NCBI GenBank assembly: GCA_034666985.1
Contig: JAXDKS010000063.1
Location: 105,226 to 169,225 of the forward strand
DNA: 64,000 bases
From: Acidobacteriota bacterium
Lineage (GTDB): Bacteria; Acidobacteriota; Thermoanaerobaculia; Multivoradales; UBA5704
Reading direction: 5' to 3'
A model generated the notes under the pieces. The model had not been told where the DNA came from. It searched no databases and worked only from the letters and a program-made list of their open reading frames with translations. Positions 6,902 through 43,690 of the stretch are shown here, in pieces (the first letter of the stretch is position 1; the number at the start of each line of letters is the position of its first letter). The translations under genes and the position numbers were made by a program.

Positions 6902-9457
6902 ATGACCTCCGCACCCCCCAGGACCTCGCGCAAAACGTGGCTGGTGCTCGCCGCCATCCTCCTCGGGATCGCGGCCGCCGGGGCTTGGTGGGCCCGCGGG
7001 CACAAGGACACGGTGCGGGCTGCCCTGCGCGCCGTCGATCCCAGCACCGACGCCCGCCCGGCGACGCCCGCGGGGCCGGAGGTCTCCTCCCCCGAGTACG
7101 CCCGCCTGGGCGACGGCTTCCTGGTCTGGGAATCGAACCGCACGGGACCCTGGCGCATCTGGACGCGCCGGCTCGACGGCTCGGGCCTGCGCCAGTTGTC
7201 GCCCGACGAGAGCGGGCACGAGCACTGCTGCGCCCACATCTCCCCCGACGGCCAGCAAGTGGCCTATTTGAGCCTCAGCAACTTCAAGTACGGCGCCGAC
7301 CCTGAGGAGGGGAAGCTCCACCTGATCAAGCCCGACGGCAAGGGGGACCGCGTCGTGGCCGAGCGGGCGCAGACCTACAGCCGCGGCCACCGCGCCGCCA
7401 TCTGGCACGGCGACCAGCTCCTGCAATTCGTGGACGGCGACGGCAACGCCATCCTCCTCGACTTGGCGAAGGGCAAGACGGAGACGCTGGCCGGCCCCAG
7501 CAGCGAGGGCAAGGGCTGGCTGGTGAACCGCACGCGGACCCACGCCACCACGGGGCTGCCGACGTTCTCGCTGTTCGACGCCGCGCGCCACGCCGTCACC
7601 GAGCGCACCCCCTACGGCGGTTGCGAGCCCTACTTCTCCGACGACGGCCGCTGGGGGATCTGGATGGCGGGAGCCGGCGGACCGCTGCGCGCCTTCGACC
7701 TCGCCACGCGCACCACCCGGACGCTGTTCGAGAAGAACGATCCGCGGCTCGGCGAGCAGGCCTACCTCTACTTCCCCATGCTGTCCAACGGCTCGGCCCT
7801 CGTCGCCTTCGGAGCGTCGGCCAACGAGCACGACCACGAGAAGGGGAACTACGACGTGTTCGTGGCCGAGGTCGATCCCAACACCATGGAGGTCCTCGGC
7901 CAGCCCCTGAAGTACACCTCCGCGCCGACCCCGGACCGCTATCCGGACGTGCACGTGGAACCGCTGCCGCTCGGCCGGATGTTCGGCGAGGCCCCGTTCC
8001 ACGTCCGTCTCCAGGATCCGAAGCTCGGCCCCGGCGCCGTCTGGGACTTCGGCGACGGCACCCCGGCCTCGGCGGCCCGCGGGGAGCACACCTACGAGCG
8101 GCCGGGGAGCTTCTCCATCTCGGCGCGCACCGCCGACGGTAGCCCCCTGCGCGGCCGGGTGACCGTGCTCCCCGCCCAGCCGCCCCACGCCCTGCGGGCC
8201 GAGTTGCGCCAGGGACGCGAGATCTTCGTCTCCTTCGACGAGCCGGTCGCCGCCGCCCCGGGCGGGGTGAAGGCCCGTCTGGCCTCGGGGCGGGCGATCG
8301 CCGGAACCGCCATCGGCGCCGACGGCCGCAGCCTGATCGCCTCCCTCGCCGAGGACCTCACGACCGGGGACCACCTGCACCTCGAAGGGATCGCCGACCG
8401 CGCGCAACGGCCGAACGTCCTCGCGCCGGTCGACCTGGAGATCCCGCCTCCCAGTTGGCCGATGGATCGGAGGAGCCTCATCCTGCTCTGGGAGACGGCC
8501 GACCAGCCCAACCTCGTCCCCGATCCGGCGCAGGCCGCGGACCGCACCTACGCCGTGACGCCCCACGGCCGCGCGCGCCTGAACCACGATCACGCCATGC
8601 TGCTGGTGGGCGATGGTGCCTTCCAGGCTGAGGGGGAGGCGGGCAAGAGCCTCGTCGAGCTGGCCGAGAAGAGCAACGAGATCACGCTGGAGCTGACGCT
8701 CACTCCGGCCGAGGCGACGCCCGCGACCTCGGGAGTCCTCCTCTCCTTCGGCCGCTATAAGGGAGGACCTCTCCTCCAGCTCGAGCAGCAGGGGGACGCC
8801 CTGGTCTGGCGCCTGCTGCACAACAAGTCGCTGGACCCGCCGGCCCGTTTCGGCAAGCTCGTGCCGGGTCAACCCGTGCACGTGGTCGCCGGCTACAGCC
8901 CGGGCCGTCAGGTGGTCTACGTGAACGGCGTCAAGGTGCTGGACGGCGACGCCTGGCAGGGGGATTTCTACTTCTGGAAGCCGGGCGCCCTCTCCATCGG
9001 CGCAGGTCACGAAGGCGAGCGCCCCTGGAAGGGCGTGATCGAGGGGCTCGCCCTCTACGATCGTCTCCTCGGCCCGGACGAGGCCGCGGAGAACGCCCGC
9101 CGCTACGCCACGGAGCGGGCTCGCCGGGCGGCCGTGCCCCAGACTCGCGTGCTCGCCACCCTCCAGCGCTGCTCGCGCATCCCCTCGCTCGACGAGATCG
9201 CCCCCTACCGCCAGGCCCTCGCCGTCTGCGAATACCGGGTGGACCGCGTGCTGGCCGGCACCCTCGCAAGCCCGACCGTCCGCGTCGCCCGCTGGGTGAT
9301 CCTCGACGGGGCGACGCTGAATCCTGCCCAGGGCTCCTCGGTGCCGCTGGCCCTCGAGCCGTTCAGCGCCAACGGGCAGCTCGAGAGCATCTACCTCTCG
9401 AACGACCTCCGCGGCAGCTCCACCTCACCGCTCTTCTACGACCCCACGAGCGGGTGA
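6902..9457 (+). CDS. Large membrane-anchored periplasmic protein: TolB-like beta-propeller (PD40 repeats), PKD domain, LamG/ConA-like domain
   Basis: N-terminal TM, then WESNRTGPWRIWTRRLDGSG / ISPDGQQVAYLS PD40-like repeats. PKD-like VWDFGDGTPASAARGEHTYERPGSFSIS. C-terminal LamG-like block (...YVNGVKVLDGDAWQGDFYFWKPGALSIGAG...LALYDRLL). Confidence 0.65.
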   Translation: MTSAPPRTSRKTWLVLAAILLGIAAAGAWWARGHKDTVRAALRAVDPSTDARPATPAGPEVSSPEYARLGDGFLVWESNRTGPWRIWTRRLDGSGLRQLSPDESGHEHCCAHISPDGQQVAYLSLSNFKYGADPEEGKLHLIKPDGKGDRVVAERAQTYSRGHRAAIWHGDQLLQFVDGDGNAILLDLAKGKTETLAGPSSEGKGWLVNRTRTHATTGLPTFSLFDAARHAVTERTPYGGCEPYFSDDGRWGIWMAGAGGPLRAFDLATRTTRTLFEKNDPRLGEQAYLYFPMLSNGSALVAFGASANEHDHEKGNYDVFVAEVDPNTMEVLGQPLKYTSAPTPDRYPDVHVEPLPLGRMFGEAPFHVRLQDPKLGPGAVWDFGDGTPASAARGEHTYERPGSFSISARTADGSPLRGRVTVLPAQPPHALRAELRQGREIFVSFDEPVAAAPGGVKARLASGRAIAGTAIGADGRSLIASLAEDLTTGDHLHLEGIADRAQRPNVLAPVDLEIPPPSWPMDRRSLILLWETADQPNLVPDPAQAADRTYAVTPHGRARLNHDHAMLLVGDGAFQAEGEAGKSLVELAEKSNEITLELTLTPAEATPATSGVLLSFGRYKGGPLLQLEQQGDALVWRLLHNKSLDPPARFGKLVPGQPVHVVAGYSPGRQVVYVNGVKVLDGDAWQGDFYFWKPGALSIGAGHEGERPWKGVIEGLALYDRLLGPDEAAENARRYATERARRAAVPQTRVLATLQRCSRIPSLDEIAPYRQALAVCEYRVDRVLAGTLASPTVRVARWVILDGATLNPAQGSSVPLALEPFSANGQLESIYLSNDLRGSSTSPLFYDPTSG

Positions 9458-23695: not shown

Positions 23696-26600
23696 TCAAC
23701 CGTTCGGCTTGAGCGGTCCAACCCGGACTCCCGGTCCACCGGCTCCGTCCTGCTTCGTTCCATCCTGGGCCTCCACCCTGCGATCGAAAAACTGCCGCGG
23801 CTCGGGAGCGAGGTCCCGGCTCACCCTGGCGATCTCCTCGCCGGCGCGGCGACGTTCGGCTTCGGCCTCGGCGCTCCGGCCGTCGCGTTCCAAAGCACGT
23901 GCCAGCAGCCGGTGCAGCCGGTAGGAGCCGGCGTAGCCGCCGCAGGCCGTTGCAAGCTGAAGGCCGGCCCGGGCCGCCGCCTGCGCCCGCCCCGGCTCGC
24001 CGGCGGCGAGCGCCGCCCGGGCCACGGCCTCGGCGGCGCGCAGCCGCAGCCGGGCGTTACCCAGCGCCTCGGCCTCGGCGCGCAAGCGCTCCAGCTCGGC
24101 GAGCCCGGCCCTGGACCGGCCCGGAACGTCGGCGGCCGACAGCCGGGTGGCCAGGATCTCGACCACGCCATGGCTCTCTTTGGCCTCGGCGACCGCCCGG
24201 CGCAGGGCCTCCCCGGCAGCGGCGCGATCCCTCGGACCATCGTGCGCCAGGAGATGCTCGCCGCGCAGCCGGTCGAGCTCGGCCTGCTGCTCCCGGTTCT
24301 TGCCCTCGGCCAGCAGCTCCCCGGCGGCCCGCAGGCGCTCGCCGGCGGCCTCGATCATCCCCAGCTCGAGCTCGGCCTCGGCCGCGGCCAGGGTGAACTC
24401 GGCGAGACCCCGTCGGTCGCCGAGCTCACGCAGGACCTTCAGGGCTTCATCGTAGGAGGCGAGAGCGGCGCCCGGGCGTCCCTGGTACTGGGCGAGGCGC
24501 CCGAGGTTGCCGAGCGAGACCGCGATCGTCTCTTTCTTGCCGAGCTCCCGGCTCGCGCCGAGGGCGGTGAGGAAGGACTTGACCGCCTCATTCCACTCCC
24601 CGCGCGCCAGCTCGAGCTGGCCGAGGTTCTGCGTCGCCAGAATGACGCCGCTCGGATTGCCGCTCTGCTTGGCCAGGTCGAGACCCTGGCGCCAGTAGAC
24701 CAGGGCGTCGTCGTAGCGCCCCAGCAGGTAGCAGGCGAAGCCCACGTTGCTGAAGCTCTGGGCCAGGGCGAGGTCATTGCCGAGGTCGCGGCGTACGCGC
24801 AGCGCCTGCCGGTAGCCCTCCAGGGCCTCCTCGTAGCTGCCCCGCTGCTCGGCGAGCACCCCGAAGTTGTCGTAGAGGTCGGCGATGCCCGGCGCGTCGC
24901 CCAGCCGCTGCAGGAGAGCCAGGGCCTCCGTGAGCTGCGACCGGGCCGCCGCGTACTGGCCGCGCATCGTATGGATGGTCGCCAGGTTGCGCAGGGTCGT
25001 CGCATAGCCGCGCTTGTCGCCGATCCGCTTCCGGATGGCCGCTGCCTGCTCGTAGGTCTCGACCGCTCGATCCATCTCCCCGAGGTTGCGGTAGGCCACC
25101 CCGAAGGCGTTCAGCACCTCGGCCCGGCTCTGCTCGCTGCCGAGCTCGTTCTGCACCACCAGCGCCCGTACCAGGTACTCGTCCACGGCGTGCCGGGCGT
25201 CGCCAGCCACGATCGAATACCTGCCGAGGAGGAACCAGGCGCGCGGGTGATGCGGCGCGAGGCGCACCGCCTCCCGCAGGGCGGCGATCGCACGGTCGAG
25301 GCTCCCCTGCTCGCCGTAGGCCTCCGCCAGCTCGATCCGCGCCTCGACGTCGTCCGGGTAGCGCGCGAGCAGCCGGGAGAGGATCTCCTGCGCCCGCTCC
25401 GGACGGCCCAGGAGCCGCGCCTCGACGGCCCGCGCCTCGTAGGCCGCGCGGCTCTCTCCTGCCCCCAGGATCTCGACCGCCCGTTGCGCCGCCTCGCGCG
25501 CCGGCTCCCCCTGGCCGAGCGCCTGGCGCGCCCGGGCGAGCTGCACCCAGGCAGCGCTGTAGCGCGGATCGGCCGTCACCGCCCGCTCCAGGGAGGGCAC
25601 CGCCGCCAGGGCGTCCCCGCGCCGCAGGCTCTCCACCCCCTTGGAGTACTCCGCCAGGGCCGCCGGCGAACGGCTCGCCACCGGCTCTACCGCCACGGCC
25701 GCGGGTACCGCGAGCTCCCGGCGCAGGACCCCGCCGAGTTGCTCGACGAGGCGGAAGGCCTCCCCTTCCGCGGCCTCGGCGTGAAGCGCTGCCGCCGGCA
25801 GGCCGGGGGGGTCCGTCGCCAGCAGCGAGAGATCGATCCGCAATTGGCCGCCCACGGCGCGGACCCGGCCGCCGACCAGATGGTCGGCGTCGAGCAGCCC
25901 CGCCAAGCGCCGCGCCTCGGTCTCGGGCAGCGGTCCGCGCGGCAGCTTCAGATCCTCCAGGGTGCGGAAGACCCGCTGGCTGTCGAGCACCCGCAGCTCC
26001 GGGCTCTCGGCCAGGGAGGCGGCGAGCATCTCCGGCATCCCGATAGCCACCCAGGCCAGGTCCGGCCGGCCCGTGTCGTCGGCCAGGGGGAGGAGCGCCA
26101 CGGCATGCCGAGGCCCCGCGGCGACCGTCTTCCTGGCAGCGGCCGGCTGCCGTGCCTGCGGGACGCGCCCGCGGCCAACCTCGCGGACGGCCCAGCCGAG
26201 GACGAGCAAGACGAGGAGACAGCCCACCCCCACCGCGATCTGCCACCGCTGAATCGCGGGGGCCGCGCGGTGCTGGTCGTCGAGCTCCTGGACGACCTCG
26301 CCCGCGCTCTGCGGTCGCCGCGCCGGGTCGCGCGCCAGCAGCCGCTGCACGAGGGCCCGCAGGGGGGCCGGCACCGCGGCTGGCCAGCGCAGATTGCGCG
26401 GCGACCCGGTCAACCGCTGGGCCAGCATCTCGGCCTCGGTGGCGGCCGAGAACGGCAGCTCGCCGGTCAGCATCTCGTAGAGGAGGAGCCCCAGGGTATA
26501 GAGATCGGACCGGCCGTCGACCGCGTCCCCTCGCGCCTGCTCCGGCGAGAGATAGCCGAGGGTGCCGAGCACGGTGCCGGGGACGGTCAGGCCCGAGCCC

Positions 26601-27157
26601 GTGAGCGAGCGGGCGATCCCGAAGTCGGTGATGGCGACGCGCAGGGAGCCTCCGCTCTCGTCGACCAGGACGTTGCCGGGCTTCAGGTCGCGATGGATCA
26701 CCCCCGCGCCGTGGGCCGCCTCCAGCGCGAGGGCGAGCTGACGGGCGATCGCCACCGCCCGCTCCGGGGCCAGCCGCGTCTCCTCGGCGAGCAGGTCCCC
26801 CAGCGACCGGCCAGGGACGAAGTCCATGGTGAGGAAGGCGAGATCGCCGTCGCTGCCGATGTCGTGGATGCGGACGACGTTGGGGTGGCTCACCTGCCGC
26901 GCCAGCACCAGCTCCTGCTTGAAGCGCTCCAGCCACCGCCCATCCCCCGCCAGGTCGGGCCGCAGGACCTTGACCGCGACGGGCAGCCCGAGCTGCTCGT
27001 CCTGCGCCCGGTAGACCATCCCCATGCCGCCGACGCCCACCAGCTCCAGGATGCGGTAGCGCCCGCCGAGCAGGGAGCCCACCGCCAGCCGCTGGACAGC
27101 TCCCTCGGCGGTGCGGGTCGGGAGGTCCGACCGCCGCGCCGGGAGCTCGCCGCTCAC
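23696..27157 (-). CDS. Hanks-type Ser/Thr protein kinase, single TM, long extracytoplasmic TPR-repeat region (1153 aa)
   Basis: YRILELVGVGGMGMVYRA...VIHRDLKPGNVLV...DFGIAR...GTLGYLSPE catalytic core, TM WQIAVGVGCLLVLLVLGWAV, then more than 12 TPR-like repeats. The GTG start at 27157..27155 overlaps the stop of the FHA-GAF gene (GTGA). Confidence 0.85.
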   Translation of the reverse strand: MSGELPARRSDLPTRTAEGAVQRLAVGSLLGGRYRILELVGVGGMGMVYRAQDEQLGLPVAVKVLRPDLAGDGRWLERFKQELVLARQVSHPNVVRIHDIGSDGDLAFLTMDFVPGRSLGDLLAEETRLAPERAVAIARQLALALEAAHGAGVIHRDLKPGNVLVDESGGSLRVAITDFGIARSLTGSGLTVPGTVLGTLGYLSPEQARGDAVDGRSDLYTLGLLLYEMLTGELPFSAATEAEMLAQRLTGSPRNLRWPAAVPAPLRALVQRLLARDPARRPQSAGEVVQELDDQHRAAPAIQRWQIAVGVGCLLVLLVLGWAVREVGRGRVPQARQPAAARKTVAAGPRHAVALLPLADDTGRPDLAWVAIGMPEMLAASLAESPELRVLDSQRVFRTLEDLKLPRGPLPETEARRLAGLLDADHLVGGRVRAVGGQLRIDLSLLATDPPGLPAAALHAEAAEGEAFRLVEQLGGVLRRELAVPAAVAVEPVASRSPAALAEYSKGVESLRRGDALAAVPSLERAVTADPRYSAAWVQLARARQALGQGEPAREAAQRAVEILGAGESRAAYEARAVEARLLGRPERAQEILSRLLARYPDDVEARIELAEAYGEQGSLDRAIAALREAVRLAPHHPRAWFLLGRYSIVAGDARHAVDEYLVRALVVQNELGSEQSRAEVLNAFGVAYRNLGEMDRAVETYEQAAAIRKRIGDKRGYATTLRNLATIHTMRGQYAAARSQLTEALALLQRLGDAPGIADLYDNFGVLAEQRGSYEEALEGYRQALRVRRDLGNDLALAQSFSNVGFACYLLGRYDDALVYWRQGLDLAKQSGNPSGVILATQNLGQLELARGEWNEAVKSFLTALGASRELGKKETIAVSLGNLGRLAQYQGRPGAALASYDEALKVLRELGDRRGLAEFTLAAAEAELELGMIEAAGERLRAAGELLAEGKNREQQAELDRLRGEHLLAHDGPRDRAAAGEALRRAVAEAKESHGVVEILATRLSAADVPGRSRAGLAELERLRAEAEALGNARLRLRAAEAVARAALAAGEPGRAQAAARAGLQLATACGGYAGSYRLHRLLARALERDGRSAEAEAERRRAGEEIARVSRDLAPEPRQFFDRRVEAQDGTKQDGAGGPGVRVGPLKPNG

Positions 27158-29312: not shown

Positions 29313-31874
29313 ATGAATGCATCACCCATCCAGCGCTTCCGCGCTTCAGCCCTGCGGGCCTTCGCCCCGGCGCTGTGCGTGGCCGCGTTGCTGCTCACGA
29401 GCCTCGCTACCGTCAGCCCCGCGTCCGCGGCGACGCTGGGACCCTCTCTCACCGCCAAGCTGAACGGCCTCCCGGGCACGGCCAGCGTGGGCACGGTGAT
29501 CGTGGCGTTCAACACCAGCACCGGCCTCAACCCTTCGCACCTGACGACCCTGACCCTGGCCGGCATCACCCGTGGCGTCACGCTCCAGAACCTCGGCATG
29601 GTGGCCGCGCCGGCGACCGCGGGCCAGGTCCGCGCCCTGGCCTCCAACCCCGCCGTGCGCTCGATCTGGCTCAACGACCGGCTGCAGTACCTGAACGATC
29701 AGACCCGCACGCTCACCGGCGTCGACCACATGCGCACCGATCCGGACTTCGCCCGGCTCAACCAGGGGCTGCCCGTCTCGGGCAAGGGCAACTTCTCGCT
29801 CGTCATCAACGACTCCGGGGTCGACGGCACCCATCCCGACCTGCACTTCCCGGAGCACCTCATCCAGAACGTGCAGTCGTTCGTCGACACCAACACGCTG
29901 ACCGGCTTCCTCCCCCCCGTGTTCGTCGAGAACGTGCCGGACACCGACCTCAACGTCGGGCATGGCACCCATTGCGCGGGCATCGCGGCCGGGACCGGCG
30001 CCGCCTCCGGCGGCCAGTACGCCGGCGTCGCTCCGGGAGCGAACCTGGTCGGCTTCGGCTCCGGCGCCGTGCTCTTCATCCTCAACGGCCTCGGCGGCTT
30101 CGAGTACTCGCTCGCCAACCAGTTCCGCTACAACGTCCGCATCATCTCGAACTCGTGGGGCGGGACGGGCGCGTACGATCCGAACGATCCCATCGCGATC
30201 GCCAGCAAGCTGGCCCACGACCGCGGGATCGTCGTCGTGTTCGCGGCCGGCAACTCCGGTCCGGGCAAGGACACCATGAGCTCCGAGCCGAAGTCTCCCT
30301 ACGTGATCGCCGTGGCCGCCGGGACCAAGGAAGGCGGCCTCGCGGGCTTCTCGTCGCGCGGCGTGCCGAAGTCCCAGCGTCAGGCCGGCGACTTCAACGC
30401 GCCGGCGATCACCGCTCCGGGCACGGGCCGCGAATTCGACTCGAACAGCGGCCGGTTCACCTCCGACGTGGTGTCCACCCGCTCCAAGACCAACGTCTTC
30501 GCCAACGGCACGACCGCCGACGCCGAGCTCCCGGTCTCCGCCCTTCCCTACTACACCGAGATCAGCGGCACCTCGATGGCGGCGCCCTTCATCGCCGGCA
30601 CCGTGGCCCTGATGCTGAGCGTCGACCCGACGCTGTCGCCCGACGAGGTGAAGTCGATCCTCACCCAGACGGCCACGCAGATGCCCGGCTTCTCCGAGTT
30701 CGAGGTCGGCGCCGGCTACGTCAACGTCTACGCGGCCGTCGACAAGGTCTTCCACCGCAGCAAGGCCTACGGCACCTACGGCGGACCGCTCGACCAGCAG
30801 CACTTCAATCTGAGCATCACCACCACCACCGCTTCGCAGACGCCCTTCCACGTCGACTACAACCCGGTGGCGACGCCGGGGCCGGGCGGCGCCAACTCGA
30901 AGCCTTTCCAGGTGCAGGCCGGCATCTCGGTGCTGGACGTCTTCGCCAACGTCGACAATGCGGTGACGACCGGCGATGGCAACACCGTGGCCCTGCTGCT
31001 GACCGATCCCAACGGCAAGACCTACTCCAGCGGCGTGCTGATCCCCATCCTCGACGCTCCCAACCGCGAGGTGGTGGTCAACAATCCGGTCCCCGGCAAT
31101 TGGCTGCTCGAGGTCCGGGGCGTGCGCGGCCTGGCAGCCCTGCCCGAAGTCTCCCTGCCCACCTCGGGCGCGGCGCTGCCCGGTCCCGTGGACGGTACGA
31201 TCACCCAGCAGGTCCACAACCTGCCCGCGATCGCGGACGTCCAGAGCGACCCGTCGCGGACCGAGATCGAATTCGTGCTGAAGAACCGGATGATGGACGT
31301 GCTGAGCGATGGCCTGTTCCATCCATCCTCGACGGTGACGCGCGGCAGCTTCGCCCAGACCCTGGTCTCCAACACCGCGCTGCGCCAGTCGTTGGCCGAC
31401 TCTCCGCTGTACACCGACGTGACCGGTCCGCTGGCCGCCATCGCCGAGGCCGTGACGGCCGACGGCTCCACCCTGCGCGACTACGACTTCACTCCCGGCG
31501 GCATGATCGCCGCTCACTCGCCGAGCTTCTCTCCCGGCGGCGCGGTCACCCGCACCGACCTCGCGGTCGCCCTCGTCAAGGCCCTGGGGCTCGACGCGGC
31601 GGCGCAGGCCAAAGCGGGCTCGGACGTCACCGCCACCTTCAACGGCACGACCGTGGTGGTGAGCGACAATTCATCGATCCCGTCGGCCCTGCGCGGCTAC
31701 GTGCAGATCGCGCTCGACAAGGGCATCCTGAACGCCCTCTTCAGCTTCCAGCAGGGTCCCAACGACTTCGAGCCGCAACTGGTGGCCAGGGTCAAGCCGA
31801 CCAGCGCGGTGACGCGGTCCTTCCTGGCCTTCGCCCTCGACCACTACCGGCAGGCCTTCGCCGCCGGCAACTAG
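29313..31874 (+). CDS. Secreted subtilisin-like S8 serine peptidase with C-terminal SLH-like cell-surface anchoring repeats
   Basis: D/H/S triad blocks (VINDSGVDGTHPDL; HGTHCAGIAAG; GTSMAAPFIAGTVALM). Signal peptide. Three C-terminal repeats with SLH-like ...TRxxFAxxLV signatures. RBS AAAGGAGGGG precedes ATG 29313. Confidence 0.85.
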   Translation: MNASPIQRFRASALRAFAPALCVAALLLTSLATVSPASAATLGPSLTAKLNGLPGTASVGTVIVAFNTSTGLNPSHLTTLTLAGITRGVTLQNLGMVAAPATAGQVRALASNPAVRSIWLNDRLQYLNDQTRTLTGVDHMRTDPDFARLNQGLPVSGKGNFSLVINDSGVDGTHPDLHFPEHLIQNVQSFVDTNTLTGFLPPVFVENVPDTDLNVGHGTHCAGIAAGTGAASGGQYAGVAPGANLVGFGSGAVLFILNGLGGFEYSLANQFRYNVRIISNSWGGTGAYDPNDPIAIASKLAHDRGIVVVFAAGNSGPGKDTMSSEPKSPYVIAVAAGTKEGGLAGFSSRGVPKSQRQAGDFNAPAITAPGTGREFDSNSGRFTSDVVSTRSKTNVFANGTTADAELPVSALPYYTEISGTSMAAPFIAGTVALMLSVDPTLSPDEVKSILTQTATQMPGFSEFEVGAGYVNVYAAVDKVFHRSKAYGTYGGPLDQQHFNLSITTTTASQTPFHVDYNPVATPGPGGANSKPFQVQAGISVLDVFANVDNAVTTGDGNTVALLLTDPNGKTYSSGVLIPILDAPNREVVVNNPVPGNWLLEVRGVRGLAALPEVSLPTSGAALPGPVDGTITQQVHNLPAIADVQSDPSRTEIEFVLKNRMMDVLSDGLFHPSSTVTRGSFAQTLVSNTALRQSLADSPLYTDVTGPLAAIAEAVTADGSTLRDYDFTPGGMIAAHSPSFSPGGAVTRTDLAVALVKALGLDAAAQAKAGSDVTATFNGTTVVVSDNSSIPSALRGYVQIALDKGILNALFSFQQGPNDFEPQLVARVKPTSAVTRSFLAFALDHYRQAFAAGN

Positions 31875-31907
31875 AACCCGCCAGACCCGCCTCTCGCTCC
31901 TCGCATG

Positions 31908-31943
31908 GGGGTGGGGACCAGGTCCCCGCCCCTATTTTTTATT
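31908..31943 (+). terminator. Rho-independent terminator of the S8 peptidase gene
   Basis: 10-bp stem GGGGTGGGGA/TCCCCGCCCC (one G-U wobble), loop CCAGG, then TATTTTTTATT. Lies 34 nt after the stop. Confidence 0.8.
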
Positions 31944-31998
31944 ACAGCTCGACAGCACTCACCGCCAGGGAGCCCATTCAAAGACCTCCCCGGGAGGC

Positions 31999-32463
31999 TT
32001 AACGAGGCAGATACTCGCGCATCTGGTCGTACAGCGGCGTGAGCGTGGCGATCTCGCACCCCCCTTCCGGGAAGGTGAAAGTCGTCTCAAAGTCTTCATA
32101 GCTGCGCGCTCGCCAGAGACGGCCCTCGGGGTCGATGACGAGGGAATGGCCGACACCGCCGCGGAAAATGCGCGAACCCTCGGTTCCGGTGTAGACCGTG
32201 CAGGTCCACGGGCGTTCCTCAGGATGCGCAGCCATGTAGCTCTCGATCTCTCCGACGTATCCCTCGAAGAGTCGAGCGCGGTGCCTGGCTGGAGCTCTGA
32301 GAGTTGCGGAGATCGCGTACCCCAACAGCTCGTCGGCTGGCGAGGAGAGGACGCCCGAGTGGAGATTGGAGATCTGAGTCATTTGCCTCTGAGCGGCAAT
32401 CCGCTCCATCGCCGCATCCATCTCTTCGGACGTCGGAATCCTGGGTATCTTCGGCGAGCCCAT
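31999..32463 (-). CDS. Hypothetical protein (154 aa), lower-GC accessory region
   Basis: ATG at 32463..32461 (index 39 of ORF 31999..32580). Protein-like composition, no recognised domain. Confidence 0.4.
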   Translation of the reverse strand: MGSPKIPRIPTSEEMDAAMERIAAQRQMTQISNLHSGVLSSPADELLGYAISATLRAPARHRARLFEGYVGEIESYMAAHPEERPWTCTVYTGTEGSRIFRGGVGHSLVIDPEGRLWRARSYEDFETTFTFPEGGCEIATLTPLYDQMREYLPR

Positions 32464-32533
32464 CAGAGCTGCTCTGATTCTATCCCAGGCGTGCTTCAGA
32501 CGGTGCGAGCTACGACGCCTACGACTGGTTCGT

Positions 32534-33220
32534 ATGCGGCGGCACAACCTCATTCTCAACGCTGTTTCCGTGCTTTCCAACCATCTTCATATTCTCGCCG
32601 TCCCCGAAAGCGCGCGCCAGCTCGCCGACTTCATGCGCGATTTCAAGTCCAAGCTCGCGCGGGAGGTCAACCGCCTCACCGGCTGGAGCGGACCGGTCTT
32701 CGAGCGCCGCTACGAGATGACGGTCGTCACCCAAGAAGACCGCCCCCAGATCGAGCGACTCTCGTATGTGCTCGCGCAGTCCGTTAAAGAAGATTTGGTC
32801 GAAGAGGTCCGTGAGTGGCCCGGCGTGCACTCCGCGGCGGCGCTGATCGACGGTACGCCGCTCGCGGGGCACTGGTTCGATCGCACGCGGGAGTACGCCG
32901 CCTATCGCGAACGCATCAAGGGGCTGGTCGAGGGCATCGAGAGCGATGCCGCCCTCTTGAGGAGCCTCAATGGTACCTCCGTCCTGGGAGTGGAAGCGAT
33001 CCTGGCGAAAGATCCGCAACATCGTCCTGAGTCGATCGCCCGCTCGCCGGCGCCGTTGGTCCACGCGGCCACCAAAGCCGCCCGCAAGGCGTTCTACGAC
33101 GCCTACGCCTGGTTCGTCGCCGCCTTCCGGCAAGCCGCCGAGAAACTGCGGCAGGGCGACCGCAATGCGGTCTTCCCGGCCGGCAGCTTCCCGCCCGCCC
33201 TGCCGTTCGTGGCGGGATAA
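32534..33220 (+). mobile_element. IS200/IS605-family Y1 (RAYT-like) transposase gene, N-terminally truncated or frame-disrupted (probable remnant)
   Basis: RHNLILNAVSVLSNHLHILAVPESARQLADFMRDFKSKLAREVNRLTGWSGPVFERRYEMTVV matches the HxH...Y core of REP-associated tyrosine transposases. The expected N-terminal HVxxRG block is missing from this frame; a possible remnant (HRRIHLFGRRNP) lies in another frame about 150 nt upstream. Confidence 0.6.
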
Positions 33221-33450
33221 CCCTCTCGCCTGCGCTCTTTGCCAGCCGCACAGCCCGCCGGAGGGCCATCCTTCCGAGCTTCTGAAGCTCGCAGGGGGAA
33301 GGTGTGTTCAGACCGGCCGGTACGACTCCCGAATAGACGTTTCAGACCCACTTCTGGTCGCTTACGAGCGGCTCAGAGGGGGCGACGCCAGCCGATCGAC
33401 GTGCTGATCTCAAGAATGCCCTGGCACGTTACCTACCTACCTGGGGCACG

Positions 33451-33870
33451 TTACCTGGGTGGCCGCAGGAAGAAGCCGCACGCCAGGGCCCCGATCAGGG
33501 CGGCGATCATCATGGACGCCGCGTGCCAGGAGGCCGGGCCGCCGCCGAAAAGCTTGTAATAGATCGTCGAGAGCGCCAGGAACACCGGCCGGTAATAGCT
33601 GCTGATGACGGTGTCTCCCCCCTTGCGCAGCGCCCCGACGTCGGTCGTGAAGCCGTGGGGGATGCTCCCGAGGTCCGAGAGCGATGGGCTGTTCTGGAAG
33701 AGCACGAAGTCGTCCAGCAGGAAGCCGTAGCCCGTGGTGGGCCAGTAGAGGAGGAACGGCACGACCGCGGCCAGCAGAAGGAACCACAGCCGGCGGGGAT
33801 CGGCGGGCGCCGGTCTCTTCGCCGCCGGGCGGGCCGCCTCCGCTTTTTTCCGTTGCGCCTTCCTGGACAT
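33451..33870 (-). CDS. Hypothetical polytopic membrane protein fragment
   Basis: TM segments and a YYRPV/LDDFVLF region reminiscent of N-termini of membrane-anchored TPR/glycosyltransferase-like proteins. Short, so possibly truncated. No SD sequence. Confidence 0.4.
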   Translation of the reverse strand: MSRKAQRKKAEAARPAAKRPAPADPRRLWFLLLAAVVPFLLYWPTTGYGFLLDDFVLFQNSPSLSDLGSIPHGFTTDVGALRKGGDTVISSYYRPVFLALSTIYYKLFGGGPASWHAASMMIAALIGALACGFFLRPPR

Positions 33871-33900
33871 GATGGGGGGAGAGACTACGTGAAGTGGGCG

Positions 33901-33948
33901 AGCCCGCGCAACGCGAAAGGCCGGCGCGGCCTCCGGAGAGGCCGCGCC
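33901..33948. repeat. 48-bp palindrome-containing repeat, copy A, immediately 3' of the lipase gene
   Basis: AGCCCGCGCAACGCGAAAGGCCGGCGCGGCCTCCGGAGAGGCCGCGCC, with an internal 11-bp perfect inverted repeat GGCGCGGCCTC/GAGGCCGCGCC. 45/48 identical to copy B at 35123-35169. Confidence 0.8.
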
Positions 33949-33957
33949 CTACGGCTG

Positions 33958-35052
33958 CTATCCCATGGCGGCGGCGGGCATCGGAAGGTGACCCGTCCCC
34001 GAGGGAGCATACGGATTGGGGATGTTGAAGAGCGGCTTCCCCGCGGCGTCGTGCAGCGTCAGCAAGGCCTCGACCCCCAGGAGCAGGACGTAGGCGAAGA
34101 TGTGCTGGTAGAAGGCCTCGGTCTCGAAATCCTGCGTCGTGCCGCCGGAGCCCCGGACGGTCGAGCCGGTGAGGTCGTTCGCGGTTCCGATCCGGGTGTA
34201 GTTGTCGTCCCAGGCGAATCCCTGCGCCGCGGCCACGGCTTTCTTGATCTCCGGGCTGGCCGTGATGTTGGGAGCATACAGATCAGGAATGCTGGCGAGC
34301 GTCTTCTCTCCCCAGGCCAGAGGGACGACGTCCAGGCTGTTCGCCAGGTCCGCGTTCCACACCTGCCACTGTTGCGGGCCCGCGACCGGCTGGGGGAAGG
34401 TCTGCGAGAAGAACGCCGCGAACGTGCTGTTGCCAGCGGTCGGTCCGGCTGTCGGATAGACGTACACGGCCTGCCAGGCGCTGGGATTGAGACCCTGCTG
34501 CGCCAGCGCCAGCGCCAGCGTGGGAGCGAGGGCGCCTCCGAGGCTGTGCCCGGTGAAGATCAGCGTGGAGCTCGACGCGGCCTCGACGTTCCGCAGGTAG
34601 GCTAGGAGCGTCTGCCCCCCGCTCTCCAGGGAGAGGAGAGCGTTCACCCCGTCCCGGGTACCGGGGGCGATCAGGGTCCCGATAGGCGCGTTGCCCCCGT
34701 AAGGCCAGGCGAGGGGATGCTGGATGGCGAGATCCTCGATGATGTCGTAGCTCGATGTGGGATTCGTCCCGGCGATGGCGATCACGTAGACGCCGTTGAC
34801 CTTGTCACGGACGAGATAGATGGCGTTGTCCGCGGCGCTCGACCCCGAGCTCTGGAAGATCGCCGGTCCCCAGGCGAGCTCCCAGGAGTCGCCGATCAGT
34901 TGCTGGAGGCCCGGATTGCGCAGCCGGCTCCAGATCGATGCCGCCAGATACTCGGCCAGCTCGAGCGTGTTTCCACTCAAGCTGTCGTCCGCGCTGGACA
35001 TCAATGTAATGGTGAACGCCTGCTGCCACAGATCGAAAGTACCCTGAGCCAT
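33958..35052 (-). CDS. Class-3 lipase family alpha/beta hydrolase
   Basis: GHSLGGALA nucleophile elbow in a lipase_3-like context (YVIAIAGTNP...IFTGHSLGGALAPTLAL). Strong RBS GAGGAGAAGAAA precedes ATG 35052. Confidence 0.8.
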   Translation of the reverse strand: MAQGTFDLWQQAFTITLMSSADDSLSGNTLELAEYLAASIWSRLRNPGLQQLIGDSWELAWGPAIFQSSGSSAADNAIYLVRDKVNGVYVIAIAGTNPTSSYDIIEDLAIQHPLAWPYGGNAPIGTLIAPGTRDGVNALLSLESGGQTLLAYLRNVEAASSSTLIFTGHSLGGALAPTLALALAQQGLNPSAWQAVYVYPTAGPTAGNSTFAAFFSQTFPQPVAGPQQWQVWNADLANSLDVVPLAWGEKTLASIPDLYAPNITASPEIKKAVAAAQGFAWDDNYTRIGTANDLTGSTVRGSGGTTQDFETEAFYQHIFAYVLLLGVEALLTLHDAAGKPLFNIPNPYAPSGTGHLPMPAAAMG

Positions 35053-35122
35053 TTTCTTCTCCTCTCGCGTCCTGCCGAGGCAGGAAAGAATTCTGGTTTG
35101 CGCCGCGCCGTGGTTCCCGGCA

Positions 35123-35169
35123 GCCCGCGCGACGCGAAAGCCGGCGCGGCCTCCGGCGAGGCCGCGCCG
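35123..35169. repeat. Palindrome-containing repeat, copy B, immediately 5' of the lipase gene (same orientation as copy A)
   Basis: AGCCCGCGCGACGCGAAAGCCGGCGCGGCCTCCGGCGAGGCCGCGCC. Confidence 0.8.
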
Positions 35170-35232
35170 CGGTTACGGTGTCCTGTGCTCAGTTGGCGAC
35201 AGTGGACGACCTCAGCGCTAACACCTCCTGCC

Positions 35233-35595
35233 TTAATCTTCTATGGAGGTACTGCAAGAGGAAGACTTTGGCATCATCTGGCTAAACTTCATGCCTGCCT
35301 GGTTCACGACCAACTGTACTATGCCACCTTCATCTTCAGGCTCAACACCACAGTTGTGTGTCGCTGTATACTGGGTACCACTCGCGTCAGTGAACTCGAT
35401 ACTCCAGCTATCCGTGTTGCTTGTGCTAGTGGTAAACACCGACGACACGTTAGATGAGTCCCCACTCTCCGGCAGAGAAAAACCTACCGTTGTGTTTCCG
35501 TACTCCGCTGTCCTGTGTTGAGCCTGACCCTCGATCTTGGAATTCCACTGGCTCGTTACTCTAAATCGTGCTTGGTATGGCTCGGCGTTCGTCAT
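35233..35595 (-). CDS. Hypothetical small protein (120 aa), Ser/Thr-rich
   Basis: Strong RBS AAAAGGAGAAGAT precedes the ATG at 35595..35593. Lower-GC region. A sigma-54-like promoter lies upstream on the same strand. Confidence 0.5.
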   Translation of the reverse strand: MTNAEPYQARFRVTSQWNSKIEGQAQHRTAEYGNTTVGFSLPESGDSSNVSSVFTTSTSNTDSWSIEFTDASGTQYTATHNCGVEPEDEGGIVQLVVNQAGMKFSQMMPKSSSCSTSIED

Positions 35596-35706
35596 ATCTT
35601 CTCCTTTTAGAGCTTCGTTAGAGGCCATCTCATAAATCGGGAACGAGGAAAGTGCTTCTGTTTTCGGTTTTCGATCGATCGAATTTCCGCAAGCGGTCTG
35701 GGATAG

Positions 35707-35723
35707 AGCAGGATCGGTGCCAA
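35707..35723 (-). promoter_or_regulatory. Putative sigma-54 (-24/-12) promoter on the minus strand: TGGCACC-GATC-CTGCT
   Basis: Perfect TGGCAC -24 element and a TGC -12 core at the correct 12-nt GG-to-GC spacing. About 110 nt upstream of the 35595 gene, and immediately downstream of the sigma-54 activator gene. Confidence 0.5.
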
Positions 35724-35826
35724 GGGTTCTGCAGCCCGTGGCGGCGCTCCGGACGCGCAAAAAGGTTTTCTTTTCCGTATCCTACCGTTCACACCCGGTG
35801 TGGACGATCGGATACAGGCCCCGGGG

Positions 35827-37761
<1,935 letters not shown>

Positions 37762-38646: not shown

Positions 38647-41291
38647 CGACGCAACATCGCCCGCAGCTCCGGGTCCGTGCCCAGGGGGCCGAAGACGGGG
38701 AGAGTGAACCAGCGCGGCTGGACCCCTTTCTCCAGGGCGAGCCGGGCGTTGACCAGGGCGGAGGCGCGGTCGCCGGCCAGGGCATAGACCAGGGAGGCCT
38801 CATAGAGCGTCTCCGGATCGTCGCCGCTCGCCCGCAGGGTGCCCTGGGTCAGCTCGACCGCCTCCCGCACGCGGCCGAGGTGGACGAGGCACTGCGCGCG
38901 GATCATGCGCTCGGCGGCGGAGAGGCCGCCGGCGCGCTCGGTGGCGGCGAGGCGGTCCAGGGTCTGGGCGTAGTGGCTCCGGGCCTCCTCCCCGCGGCCG
39001 AGGGCCAGCTCGGCGTCCGCCAGGTTGAGGAGCACGGAGACGTGCCCCGGCGCGAGCTCCAGGGCGCGGCGGTACGCCTCAACCGCCGCCTCCGGCCGGC
39101 CGAGCAGCAGGCGGGCGAGCCCGAGATTGGTGTAGTACGAGCGCTGAGGCTGGCGGCGGAGCAGGTCGAGATAGATCCGCTCGGCCCGCGTGGGATCCCC
39201 CTCCAGCAGCTCCAGGTTGCCCAGCTTGTCCAGCCCCCAGATGTTGTCCGGGCCGCGCGCCAGGAGCTCCTCGAGGTGGCGGCGCGCGTCGGCGGTCCGC
39301 CCGGCCTTCATCTCCAGGTCGGCCAGCCGGAAGAGGCTCGACCAATCGGGGGCGTGCTCGACGGCGGTCTTGAGCTCCGCGATCGCCTGCCGGAGGTTTC
39401 CCTGGCTCTCGGCGAGCTTGCCGGCGAGCACGTGGAGCTGGGGATCGCCCGGGGTGGTCGCGGTCAGCGCCGCGAGGGCCCGGCGCGCCTCCTCCGTCCG
39501 GTGCCCCGGCAGGGCGGCGAAGAAGAGGGCCACCAGGGGCCGGGGATCGCCGGGAGCGATCTCACGGGCGGCGCGGGCGGCGGCGAGGGCGCGCTCCAGA
39601 TGGCGGGGATCGTGCGTCGAGGTGAAGAGGCTGGCGGCGACGTGAGAGGTCAGGAGGTGCCCTTCCAGAAAGCGCGGCGAGCTGCGGACGACTTTCTCCA
39701 GCCGGTCGAGCTCGGGCCCCAGGGGGACGCTGCCGCCCTCGAACCGCTCCTTGATCCGCAGGAGCTCGGCGTAGTCGCGGTCGTCCACCTCCAGGGCCGG
39801 CGTGCCGGGGCGGAGGCGCCGCTCGGGCCAGGCGCGCCGGATCTGGACGGCCACCGCGTCGGCCAGCAGCCGGAGGTCCCGGTCCTGCGCGCCGACCGGC
39901 ACGGGGAAGCTGCCCGCCCAGAGCACTCGCCCATCTCGCCCCTGAACGCGCCGTAGCGAGATCTGAGCGCCCCCCGGTCCCCGCGGCTCCATCGTGAGGG
40001 TGAGCACCTCGCCGGCCGCGGCAGTGCGGGCCGCCTCCGCGGGCGAGGTGGCCGGGCCGCTCTGCGCGGGGTCGAGAGGGGAGATGCCGTCGAGCGAGGC
40101 GAGCGCCGAGAGCGCCGCTTCGAGCGCGCCCGCGGACGCCAAGCGGAAATCCTCTCGGGCGCCGGCGGGGACCTTCGGGATCAGGACGGCCACCCGCAGC
40201 GGCGGCGGAGCCTCCTGGCGGACGAGCCGACCGGCGCCGAGGCCGAGGACGATCAGCAGGGCCGCCGCCGCCAGGGCGAGCGCAACCGTACCGGAAAACC
40301 GCCGGAGCTTCGGCGGAGCGTACGACTCACCGGACCCAGCCGGAGGGGGGGCGAACAGGGCGGGGCCGGCCCAGGTGGGCCCCTCGCCGGCCGGCGGTCC
40401 CTCGGGAAGGTCGCTGGGAGAAAGGGCCGCCAGCTCGCGCGCCACCTCGCCGGCGCTCGCCGGCCGTTCCTCGGGCCGCTTGGCCAGCAGCCGGTCCACC
40501 AGGTCTGAGAGCGCCCCAGGGATCTCCGGCCGGCTCTCGCGGACGGGCGGCGGCCGGTGCCCGGCCACGCGCTGCAGGGTCTCCAGGAGATCGCTGCCGC
40601 GGAAGGGGGAGCGGCCGGTCAGCAGCTCATAGAGCAGCACGCCGAGCGAGAAGAGATCGGAGCGGGCGTCGACCTCGCCGCCGCGGGCCTGCTCGGGCGA
40701 CATGGCGTGGAAGGTGCCGAGCACCGCGCCCTCCACGGTGAGCGCCTCCCCCTCTCCCCGGGGAGCGGCGGCCTTGGCAATGCCGAAGTCGAGGATCTTG
40801 GCATGACCGTCCGGGGTGACCATGACGTTCTCGGCCTTGAGATCGCGATGGACGAGCCCGCCGGCGTGGGCCGCCGCGAGCCCCTCGGCGATCTCGCGCC
40901 CCAGCCGCGCGGCGAAGGCGGGCGGGGGGAGCCCCTCCCGCAGCAGCTCGCGCAAGGTGCGCCCCTCGATGTATTCGAAGACGAGGGCATCGCCCGCGGC
41001 GTCCTCCACCAGATCGTAGATCCGCACCACGGCGGGGTGGCTCAACCGCGCCGCCGCTGAGGCCTCGCGGCGGAACCGCTCCCGCTCCTCGGCGGTGGGC
41101 GCCTCGCGCCGGATGCGCTTGAGGGCCACGCGCCGGCCGAGGCGCTCGTCCCAGGCGAGGAACACCTCCCCCATGCCGCCCTGGCCGAGCCGGCGCGCCA
41201 AGCGGTAGGGACCGATGCGGATCGGCTCCGAAGGGGGGTCCGTCGTGGGTCCGGGCTCCGTCATAGGGAGAGATTCCAGGGAGCGGCTCAT
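38643..41291 (-). CDS. Hanks-type Ser/Thr protein kinase with TM and C-terminal TPR-repeat domain
   Basis: YRLARRLGQGGMGEVFLA...VALKRI...LVHRDLKAENVMV...DFGIAK...GTFHAMSPE core. TM TVALALAAAALLIVLGL, then TPR-like repeats. ATG at 41291. Confidence 0.9.
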   Translation of the reverse strand: MSRSLESLPMTEPGPTTDPPSEPIRIGPYRLARRLGQGGMGEVFLAWDERLGRRVALKRIRREAPTAEERERFRREASAAARLSHPAVVRIYDLVEDAAGDALVFEYIEGRTLRELLREGLPPPAFAARLGREIAEGLAAAHAGGLVHRDLKAENVMVTPDGHAKILDFGIAKAAAPRGEGEALTVEGAVLGTFHAMSPEQARGGEVDARSDLFSLGVLLYELLTGRSPFRGSDLLETLQRVAGHRPPPVRESRPEIPGALSDLVDRLLAKRPEERPASAGEVARELAALSPSDLPEGPPAGEGPTWAGPALFAPPPAGSGESYAPPKLRRFSGTVALALAAAALLIVLGLGAGRLVRQEAPPPLRVAVLIPKVPAGAREDFRLASAGALEAALSALASLDGISPLDPAQSGPATSPAEAARTAAAGEVLTLTMEPRGPGGAQISLRRVQGRDGRVLWAGSFPVPVGAQDRDLRLLADAVAVQIRRAWPERRLRPGTPALEVDDRDYAELLRIKERFEGGSVPLGPELDRLEKVVRSSPRFLEGHLLTSHVAASLFTSTHDPRHLERALAAARAAREIAPGDPRPLVALFFAALPGHRTEEARRALAALTATTPGDPQLHVLAGKLAESQGNLRQAIAELKTAVEHAPDWSSLFRLADLEMKAGRTADARRHLEELLARGPDNIWGLDKLGNLELLEGDPTRAERIYLDLLRRQPQRSYYTNLGLARLLLGRPEAAVEAYRRALELAPGHVSVLLNLADAELALGRGEEARSHYAQTLDRLAATERAGGLSAAERMIRAQCLVHLGRVREAVELTQGTLRASGDDPETLYEASLVYALAGDRASALVNARLALEKGVQPRWFTLPVFGPLGTDPELRAMLRR

Positions 41292-42974: not shown

Positions 42975-43690
42975 CCGTGAGTCCCGCGACTGCGCCCTGA
43001 GTCATCTGACTTCGGCTTGAGGAAGTTGACGCCGGCCTGAGGAATCTGCCGTCGTCTTGGGGAATCTGCCGTCGCCTTGGAGAAGCCGACATCGGGCTGA
43101 GTCCTCTGCCTTCGTTCTGGGGAATCTGACGCCGGTCTGAGGGATTTGATGCCGGCCTGAGGAAGATGACGCCGCTCTGAGTCCCGAGACTTTGCCGTGA
43201 ATCCCGCGACCACGCCTTGAGTCCTCTGACTTCGCCCTGAGGAAGACGACAACGGTCTGAGGAATCTGCCATCATCTTGGGGGAGTCTGACTTCGTCCTG
43301 AGGAATCCGACAGCCGGCTGAGTCCTTTGACTCCGTTCTGAGGAATCTGACGACGGCCTGAGGAACCTGCCTCCGTCTTGAGGAATCTGACCTCGCCTTG
43401 GGGAAGCCGGCATCGTGCTGAGTCTTCTGCCTTCGTTCTGAGGAATCTGACGCCGCTTTGGAGAAGATGACGGCGCCCTGAGTCCCCCAGACTCTGCCGT
43501 GAGTCCCGCGACTTTGGGCTGAAGAAGATGACGACGGCCTGAGGAAGCCTGCCGCCGTCTGGGGAGTCCGGCCTCGCCCTGGGGAAGCCGGCGCCGTGCT
43601 GAGTCCTTTGACTTCGTGCTGAGGAATCTGACGCCGGTCTGGAGAAGATGACGGCGTCCTGAGTGCCGCGACTTCGGGCTGGGGAAGCTT
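42975..43690. repeat. Tandem array of about 36 degenerate 20-bp direct repeats (consensus approximately CTGAGGAATCTGACGCCGGC) with a 5-unit (100-bp) higher-order periodicity
   Basis: CTGAG/TTGGG recurs at a strict 20-nt phase for more than 30 units. A CTGAGTCC... variant recurs about every fifth unit. All three minus-strand frames are open across it, while the plus strand carries 1-2 TGA per unit. Confidence 0.85.

Follow-up and report, generated by a model that had tools for sequence, protein, structure and literature searches.

We analysed a 64,000-nt stretch of an Acidobacteriota (Thermoanaerobaculia) genome (assembly GCA_034666985.1, contig JAXDKS010000063.1, positions 105,226 to 169,225; hereafter the window), focusing on two near-identical palindromic repeats of about 48 nt that bracket a class-3 lipase gene and lie close to the remnant of a Y1-type transposase gene. 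The lipase belongs to a minus-strand gene series that runs, from 37761 to 33451, in the order activator, palindrome, sigma-54 motif, small gene (smallB), repeat copy 2, lipase, repeat copy 1 and truncated membrane-TPR gene. An initial annotation of this region, made from the sequence alone, had proposed that the lipase was mobilised as a cassette, or that the repeats are repetitive extragenic palindromic (REP) or bacterial interspersed mosaic element (BIME) sequences belonging to the transposase. Over 20.7 kb the window is identical to contig Ga0467065_0000021 (395,714 nt) of JGI metagenome 3300044812, and the names borne by homologues of its lipase and Y1 proteins also point to Thermoanaerobaculia. 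We compared the locus with nine related loci retrieved through the lipase, the small protein and a DNA pattern.

A sigma-54 promoter with a dedicated activator appears to control the class-3 lipase operon, as judged from motifs and synteny, and this layout is kept down to 63% lipase identity. Just upstream of the operon, on the minus strand, lies a gene for a sigma-54 activator of the bacterial enhancer-binding protein (bEBP) type (35827..37761), with FHA-GAF-AAA+-HTH architecture (Pfam Sigma54_activat, 1.6e-73, together with FHA, GAF and HTH_8). This gene is syntenic in L001, L002, L020, L030, L031, L036 and L037. The palindrome GTTCACACCCGGTGTGGAC, read directly just past the activator stop codon (35787..35805), recurs at the same offset in six relatives in the form TCCACACC..GTGGA and is a candidate binding site for the activator. 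A pattern search placed a sigma-54 promoter-like motif, TGGCAC-N5-CTGCT, at 35707..35722 on the minus strand; it has the same offset (117-126 nt) in 8 of 8 loci compared, where it takes the form TGGCAY-N5-YTGCT. Activator, palindrome and motif together keep equal offsets in all eight loci that cover the region. In two relatives, a second activator-side palindrome (TCCACACCC..GTGGA) lies between smallA, the small gene of these loci, and the lipase (L002 1415-1434, L037 1609-1625), and looks like a duplicate of the upstream regulatory region.

The first gene of the operon, smallB (35233..35595, minus strand), encodes a 120-aa protein predicted to be all-beta, has a GC content at third codon positions (GC3) of 0.57 and has three homologues only; its structure model is of low confidence (predicted local distance difference test, pLDDT, 56.6). 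Several relatives carry in its place another small gene, smallA. Profile comparison (hhalign probability 66%, E 5.6e-5) indicates that the two small proteins are probably distant homologues. A 100% identical smallB (P0121) occurs on a 184-kb contig of an Acidobacteriota metagenome-assembled genome (MAG) at NCBI, with locus tag QOF89_5458, and this MAG probably represents the same population, assembled a second time. The lipase gene itself (33958..35052, minus strand, 364 aa; lipase364) was correctly identified in the initial annotation, with matches to Pfam Lipase_3 (E 2.7e-11) and to PDB entry 2ORY (E 2.6e-26); its orthologues at the same locus are 84-94% identical. It is preceded on the same strand by a leader and ribosome-binding site (35053..35095) comprising the CCTGCCtcGGCAGG hairpin and GAGAGGAGAAGAAA, which in local alignment matches the latter half of the promoter-leader that is undivided in L036. 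Downstream of the lipase, blastn breakpoints define a truncated membrane-TPR gene (33451..33870, minus strand). It encodes 139 aa in the window versus 587 aa in L020, and is full-length with TPR domains in both L020 and L029. A promoter for this gene inside the tail of copy 1 was considered, and a promoter scan found nothing there.

Both repeats lie on the minus strand, in direct orientation and 1,221 nt apart. They are 45/48 identical, and differ by two substitutions and one indel. Copy 1 (33901-33948) is 48 nt long, with an 11-bp stem, a UCCG loop and the tail GGCCUUUCGCGUUGC, and copy 2 (35122-35168) is 47 nt long, with a 12-bp stem, a GCCG loop and the tail GCUUUCGCGUC. The pair of direct palindromic repeats flanking the lipase is confirmed, with copy 2 lying one position away from where it had first been placed. 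Each copy does form the perfect hairpin described, of 11-12 bp (GGCGCGGCCTC-N4-GAGGCCGCGCC), for which shuffles of the window predict 0 chance matches. Folding energies are -28 to -30 kcal/mol, with z about -3.4 to -4.1. On the sense strand, copy 1 begins 9 nt past the lipase stop codon and only 30 nt upstream of the membrane-TPR start codon; copy 2 is 64 nt past the smallB stop codon and 70 nt ahead of the lipase start. Either stem is followed on that strand by GGC(C)UUUCGCGU(U/C)GC. The first 12 nt of the tail hold four T in the window and five to six in L001, L002 and L037, which is T-enriched for a genome of 70% GC, and the enrichment occurs on one side of the stem only.

A perfect inverted repeat of 26 bp is kept in all haplotypes. 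Only two stem substitutions were seen, in copy 2 of L030 and copy 1 of L002, and each gives a G-U pair on the sense strand but an A-C mismatch on the opposite strand. A second small hairpin within the tail (CGCG-UUG-CGCG) was considered and rejected, as L001 loses the pairing. Scanning 31500-36200 against Rfam returned only a chance-level snoRNA match (E 0.53).

The element is scarce. No third copy was found in the 64-kb window, whether up to three mismatches were allowed or an nhmmer profile of ten copies was used. We scanned genome and metagenome collections for exact matches only. The pattern of the 22-nt stem, run against the genomes of 185,579 species (one per species), occurred at 26 loci and never more than once per genome; among these, only L020 has the same tail and flank, and its assembly holds one exact hairpin. 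At 16 of the 26 loci, at least five T follow within 12 nt of the stem. In unrelated genomes and phyla, the stem thus has the look of a generic terminator in convergent use. The metagenome scan, which included the tail pattern, gave a single match, L029, at the same locus. Viral contigs gave no match to the stem pattern, plasmids gave none to the whole 33890-35800 segment, and the other fetched loci held no copy outside orthologous sites. Another contig of the same sample (L033, 8.5 kb) contained 0 copies.

Comparison among relatives separates the histories of the two copies. L001, L002 and L037, with lipases 84-91% identical to that of the window, carry the activator, promoter, smallA, hpA, lipase364 and copy 1, where hpA is a different hairpin (-38 to -39 kcal/mol) in the slot held by copy 2 in the window. 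Downstream of copy 1, synteny breaks differently in each of these three. L020 (1016-1996) comes from a Thermoanaerobaculia MAG whose shared DNA is about 95% identical; here smallA and hpA precede a 326-aa class-3 lipase (lipase326) that is 26% identical to lipase364, and copy 1 comes next, ahead of a full-length membrane-TPR gene of 587 aa. The lipase is missing from L029 (1-130), where smallA and half of hpA lead straight to copy 1 and the membrane-TPR gene. L030 and L031 are 90-93% identical to the window over their whole length and share its arrangement including copy 2, which keeps its own fixed loop base (GCCG versus UCCG in copy 1); in L030, copy 1 is followed by the membrane-TPR start, and the contig ends 85 nt into that gene. 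L036 (lipase 63% identical) lacks a small gene: its activator and promoter are followed by one undivided leader and then the lipase, and the two halves of this leader flank smallB and copy 2 in the window.

Copy 1 therefore occupies an orthologous position in L001, L002, L020, L029, L030 and L037, behind lipase364, behind lipase326 or directly behind smallA, and on this synteny we conclude that it is the ancestral 3' element of the operon. Copy 2 is confined to the smallB haplotypes (window, L030, L031). It is the derived copy, tied to replacement of the promoter and small-gene segment 35070-35771, a segment that is window-specific relative to L001, L002 and L020. Because the same activator and promoter adjoin the lipase in relatives down to 63% identity, the lipase is ancestral beside its activator. 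There are at least five haplotypes, which combine smallA or smallB with lipase364, lipase326 or no lipase, and all share copy 1. The nearest relative of the window lipase (94%) lies in a contig with a smallA-like layout (P0001, known from its gene layout alone), while the small-gene region of the window has its nearest relatives in L031 and L030; this mismatch suggests mosaic recombination. The locus thus offers a small picture of microdiversity in uncultured Thermoanaerobaculia.

Given this synteny, we consider it likely that the repeats are paralogous copies of one locus-specific RNA stem-loop of the sigma-54 lipase operon, acting as a terminator and as an intercistronic attenuator or stabiliser. 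Copy 1 would be the ancestral 3' terminator of an operon comprising a small beta-protein gene and the class-3 lipase. For copy 2, lying between two cistrons, we infer that it most likely serves as a partial terminator (attenuator), as a barrier to 3' exonucleases, or as both, which would uncouple the transcript level of the small gene from that of the lipase. As to its origin, a local duplication or recombination event may have produced copy 2 as an older small gene and promoter region gave way to a divergent version of low GC content; this event would be older than the divergence between the window lineage and L030 and L031.

Several observations support a role on the transcript. The genes around them run in one direction, and both copies are on the sense strand of these genes, behind stop codons, and form stable stems; in the smallA haplotypes an unrelated strong hairpin, hpA, occupies the slot of copy 2; and pairing through G-U is kept on the sense strand only, with T enrichment on one side. 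Rho-independent terminators and mRNA-stabilising stem-loops are familiar from other bacteria, such as the REP hairpin that separates malE from malF in E. coli and the hairpins of the puf operon of Rhodobacter. The element resembles these in having a GC-rich sense-strand stem past a stop codon, a T-enriched 3' tail and a conserved position, with one copy at the operon end and one between two cistrons. It differs in its short U-tract (3-4 U) and in that its copies are near-identical paralogues, not independent hairpins.

Other observations weigh against a terminator-type stem-loop. The U-tract is weak, and a terminator scan requiring five T in 8 nt flagged neither copy, whereas the neighbouring S8 protease gene has a canonical T6 terminator. 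The stem is nearly invariant, with 9 of 12 pairs never varying, so compensatory covariation is absent. The within-genome count covers 64 kb of a 395-kb source contig, and the copies in the window itself were not among the matches of either collection scan. Additionally, this reading leaves without explanation why a 94%-identical copy of the resident terminator stands behind a compositionally foreign gene. Finally, at least four independent rearrangement boundaries fall within a few nucleotides of the element edges: the synteny break of L001, the deletion in L029, the exchange between lipase326 and lipase364, and the borders of copy 2. This coincidence could hint at a recombinogenic role, though intergenic space here is short.

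On the opposite strand, a Y1/RAYT-like pseudogene remnant (RAYT, REP-associated tyrosine transposase) occupies 32534..33220. The initial annotation had recognised it as a remnant without its N-terminal block, and this is borne out: relative to 306-aa homologues, residues 1-46 are gone and a 33-aa internal block is deleted in frame. The open reading frame (ORF) covers positions 38-114 of 121 in Pfam Y1_Tnp (score 19.3, versus a cut-off of 23) and 43-144 of 146 in NCBIfam REP_Tyr_transpos (47.9 versus 80). Even the full-length protein P0125, which is 82% identical to the window copy and comes from another contig of the same sample, barely passes for Y1_Tnp (23.4 versus 23) and fails for the NCBIfam RAYT model (55.5 versus 80). 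A further remnant in another frame had been suspected; a plus-strand, out-of-frame scrap resembling the family C-terminus (KAFYDAYAWFV) does lie at 32490..32540, at direct repeat D4, but the tblastn match is weak alone (E 0.55). The 306-aa family has more than 1,300 database homologues, with several clusters within single large genomes.

The family also has conserved non-coding ends. About 218 nt after the Y1 stop codon are 80-85% identical among the window, L033 and L034 (L033 2513-2730) and contain a hairpin of their own, which lies at 33350-33385 in the window. In the window, this plus-strand 3' end of the Y1 unit spans 33221..33456 and finishes in CTGGCACGTTACCT (33421-33434) followed by a second partial copy (33443-33456); the TGGCAC-containing CTGGCACNTTAYCT motif with which it finishes is doubled in both the window and L034. 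L034 has unit ends at 5818-5828 and 7118-7158, with an inverted partner of the end motif upstream of its Y1 gene, and solo end fragments occur in L033 (540-608) and L037 (2848-2925). A search for inverted repeats around the window remnant found nothing convincing. The 3' flank is unrelated to the 48-nt repeat. Its end at 33456 is 5 nt from 33462, the position at which the match to the full-length membrane-TPR gene breaks off; because the unit end abuts this breakpoint, the Y1 unit accounts for the truncation of the membrane-TPR gene, and not for the repeats. On our reading of the locus, this Y1 copy is a separate matter from the stem-loops, its 3' end marking the rearrangement that cut the membrane-TPR gene downstream of copy 1.

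In its HUH motif (HLH), Y1_Tnp match, multiple copies and conserved non-coding ends with hairpins, the family is like insertion sequences (IS) of the IS200/IS605 type. It differs in its 306-aa length with a long C-terminal extension, in unit ends with short inverted TGGCAC-containing motifs (L034) and in the existence of solo end fragments. The family with its own ends may represent an undescribed IS or REP-like system, and it is this family, multi-copy in Thermoanaerobaculia, and not the 48-nt repeat, that poses the real mobile-element question of the region.

The proposal of the initial annotation, that the neighbouring RAYT acted on the repeats as REP, BIME or REPIN (paired, inverted REP) elements and mobilised either them or the lipase, draws on known REP/BIME/REPIN systems with RAYTs (Bertels and Rainey 2011, PMC3116915; Bertels et al. 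2017, PMC5581495), in which REPs bear a conserved 5' tetranucleotide tag, GTAG or CGTC (PMC3733652). There are real likenesses: a short extragenic palindrome lies less than 1 kb from a Y1 HUH gene that NCBI and JGI label REP-associated tyrosine transposase, and GTAG immediately precedes copy 1 in the window. This tag is not kept in relatives, however, with the other copies preceded by GTAC, GCAC, ACAC or CCGC. Unlike REPs or REPINs, the element is scarce, shows no inverted pairs and does not flank the Y1 gene. Its two copies in 64 kb lie at a single locus in direct orientation, and the nearest is 681 nt past the stop codon of the Y1 remnant, with a gene remnant between and none on the other side. 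The flanks of the intact Y1 homologues in L033 and L034 lack the element in a profile search, and the conserved flanks that mark the Y1 family are different ones. Where copy 1 stands directly upstream of a full-length membrane-TPR gene (L020, L029), and in L030 with its two copies, no Y1 gene was detected. Furthermore, RAYTs are typically single-copy, whereas the Y1 gene here is truncated and belongs to a multi-copy family. We therefore regard this proposal as extremely improbable. Dispersal across the genome in association with Y1 is not supported, with two copies at one locus in 64 kb, one exact hairpin in a related genome and none beside intact Y1 genes. With only two sites in 64 kb and the lipase at the same locus in relatives, the outcome that the initial annotation had itself named as speaking against it, the REP/BIME assignment is essentially refuted. 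Mobilisation of the lipase by Y1 likewise finds no footing, as copy 1 is orthologous in seven relatives with no Y1 gene nearby, and a mobile lipase cassette is not supported, with the same activator and promoter standing beside the lipase down to 63% identity and the extra repeat tied to the small gene, not the lipase. A more general caution follows: a palindromic direct repeat beside a gene labelled 'REP-associated tyrosine transposase' is evidence of neither REPs nor cassette mobilisation.

Recombination could have placed the repeats in another way. Direct repeats around an insert are expected from Campbell-type integration or tandem duplication, and the repeats might be a scar of this kind, with the element anchoring a swappable lipase cassette through a single crossover or a partly replaced tandem duplication. 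The slot does hold lipase364, lipase326 or nothing, its right-hand boundary falls exactly at the 5' edge of the element, and the mosaic pattern of nearest relatives for lipase and small-gene region fits as well. Yet the lipase adjoins the same activator and promoter even in L036 and is in that sense ancestral, the leader of L036 is interrupted by smallB and copy 2 and not by the lipase, one end of the L029 deletion lies inside hpA, so that no exchange between two element copies took place there, and the gene list of 20 kb holds no recombinase gene. Given L036, this model is less parsimonious than duplication of an operon stem-loop, and we consider it unlikely. It is very doubtful that the element is a recombinogenic module guiding hairpin-dependent gene exchange, perhaps processed in trans by the 306-aa Y1 enzymes; Y1 end fragments do lie downstream of the element, at about 20 nt in L037 and 440 nt in the window. 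Integron attC sites were rejected, with no GTTRRRY/RYYYAAC core (the only GTT is in GTTGCGC) and no integrase among the genes of 22534-43220. The locus shares with integron cassettes co-oriented genes each followed by a palindrome, one upstream promoter and variable gene content; it differs in its 48-nt element with a perfect stem and no extrahelical bases, and in a sigma-54 promoter with a dedicated activator. Were the palindrome instead bound as DNA by a dimeric regulator, so as to serve as an operator or roadblock for the lipase and membrane-TPR gene, its perfect inverted repeat in every haplotype and the closeness of copy 1 to the membrane-TPR start would be accounted for. Pairing of the two stem substitutions only as G-U on the sense RNA, T enrichment of the tail on one side only and the presence of another conserved palindrome beside the promoter all argue otherwise, as does the terminator-like form that this stem takes in unrelated phyla, and we give a DNA-binding role very little credence. 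The feature, then, is real but ordinary, most likely a duplicated terminator-type hairpin in a variable sigma-54 lipase locus, with a decayed Y1 element nearby.

The lower GC content reported for the patch is confirmed, at 0.635 over 31875-35800 versus 0.698 for the window. Among 301 windows of equal size it ranks ninth from the bottom, and GC content drops further (0.58-0.64) in a patch at 40-45 kb. Segment 35070-35771, which holds the promoter and small gene, has a GC content of 0.52, and its small-gene part, 35170-35771, is compositionally foreign (GC 0.52, GC3 0.57). The description of the patch as accessory holds in that slot content and the sequence downstream of copy 1 differ among relatives and the small-gene segment is foreign, but not for the lipase, which is ancestral at the locus. 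At the other edge of the patch, the S8 protease gene ends in a canonical intrinsic terminator on the plus strand (31905..31935), with a 14-bp stem and a run of six T. Wedged between this terminator and the Y1 remnant is a minus-strand ORF of 154 aa (31999..32463), called as a gene in the source record and of intermediate GC3 (0.75), for which Pfam, NCBIfam and PDB gave no match. Within the GC trough at 40-45 kb, positions 43018-43484 hold a degenerate tandem array of over 20 units, with a 20-nt period and a consensus of about TGAGGAATCTGACNCCG. Elsewhere in the window, a stretch of about 280 nt with 68% identity is common to two Ser/Thr kinase-TPR genes (26462-26739 and 40614-40894). These genes are thus paralogues, and one of the two is syntenic with L001.

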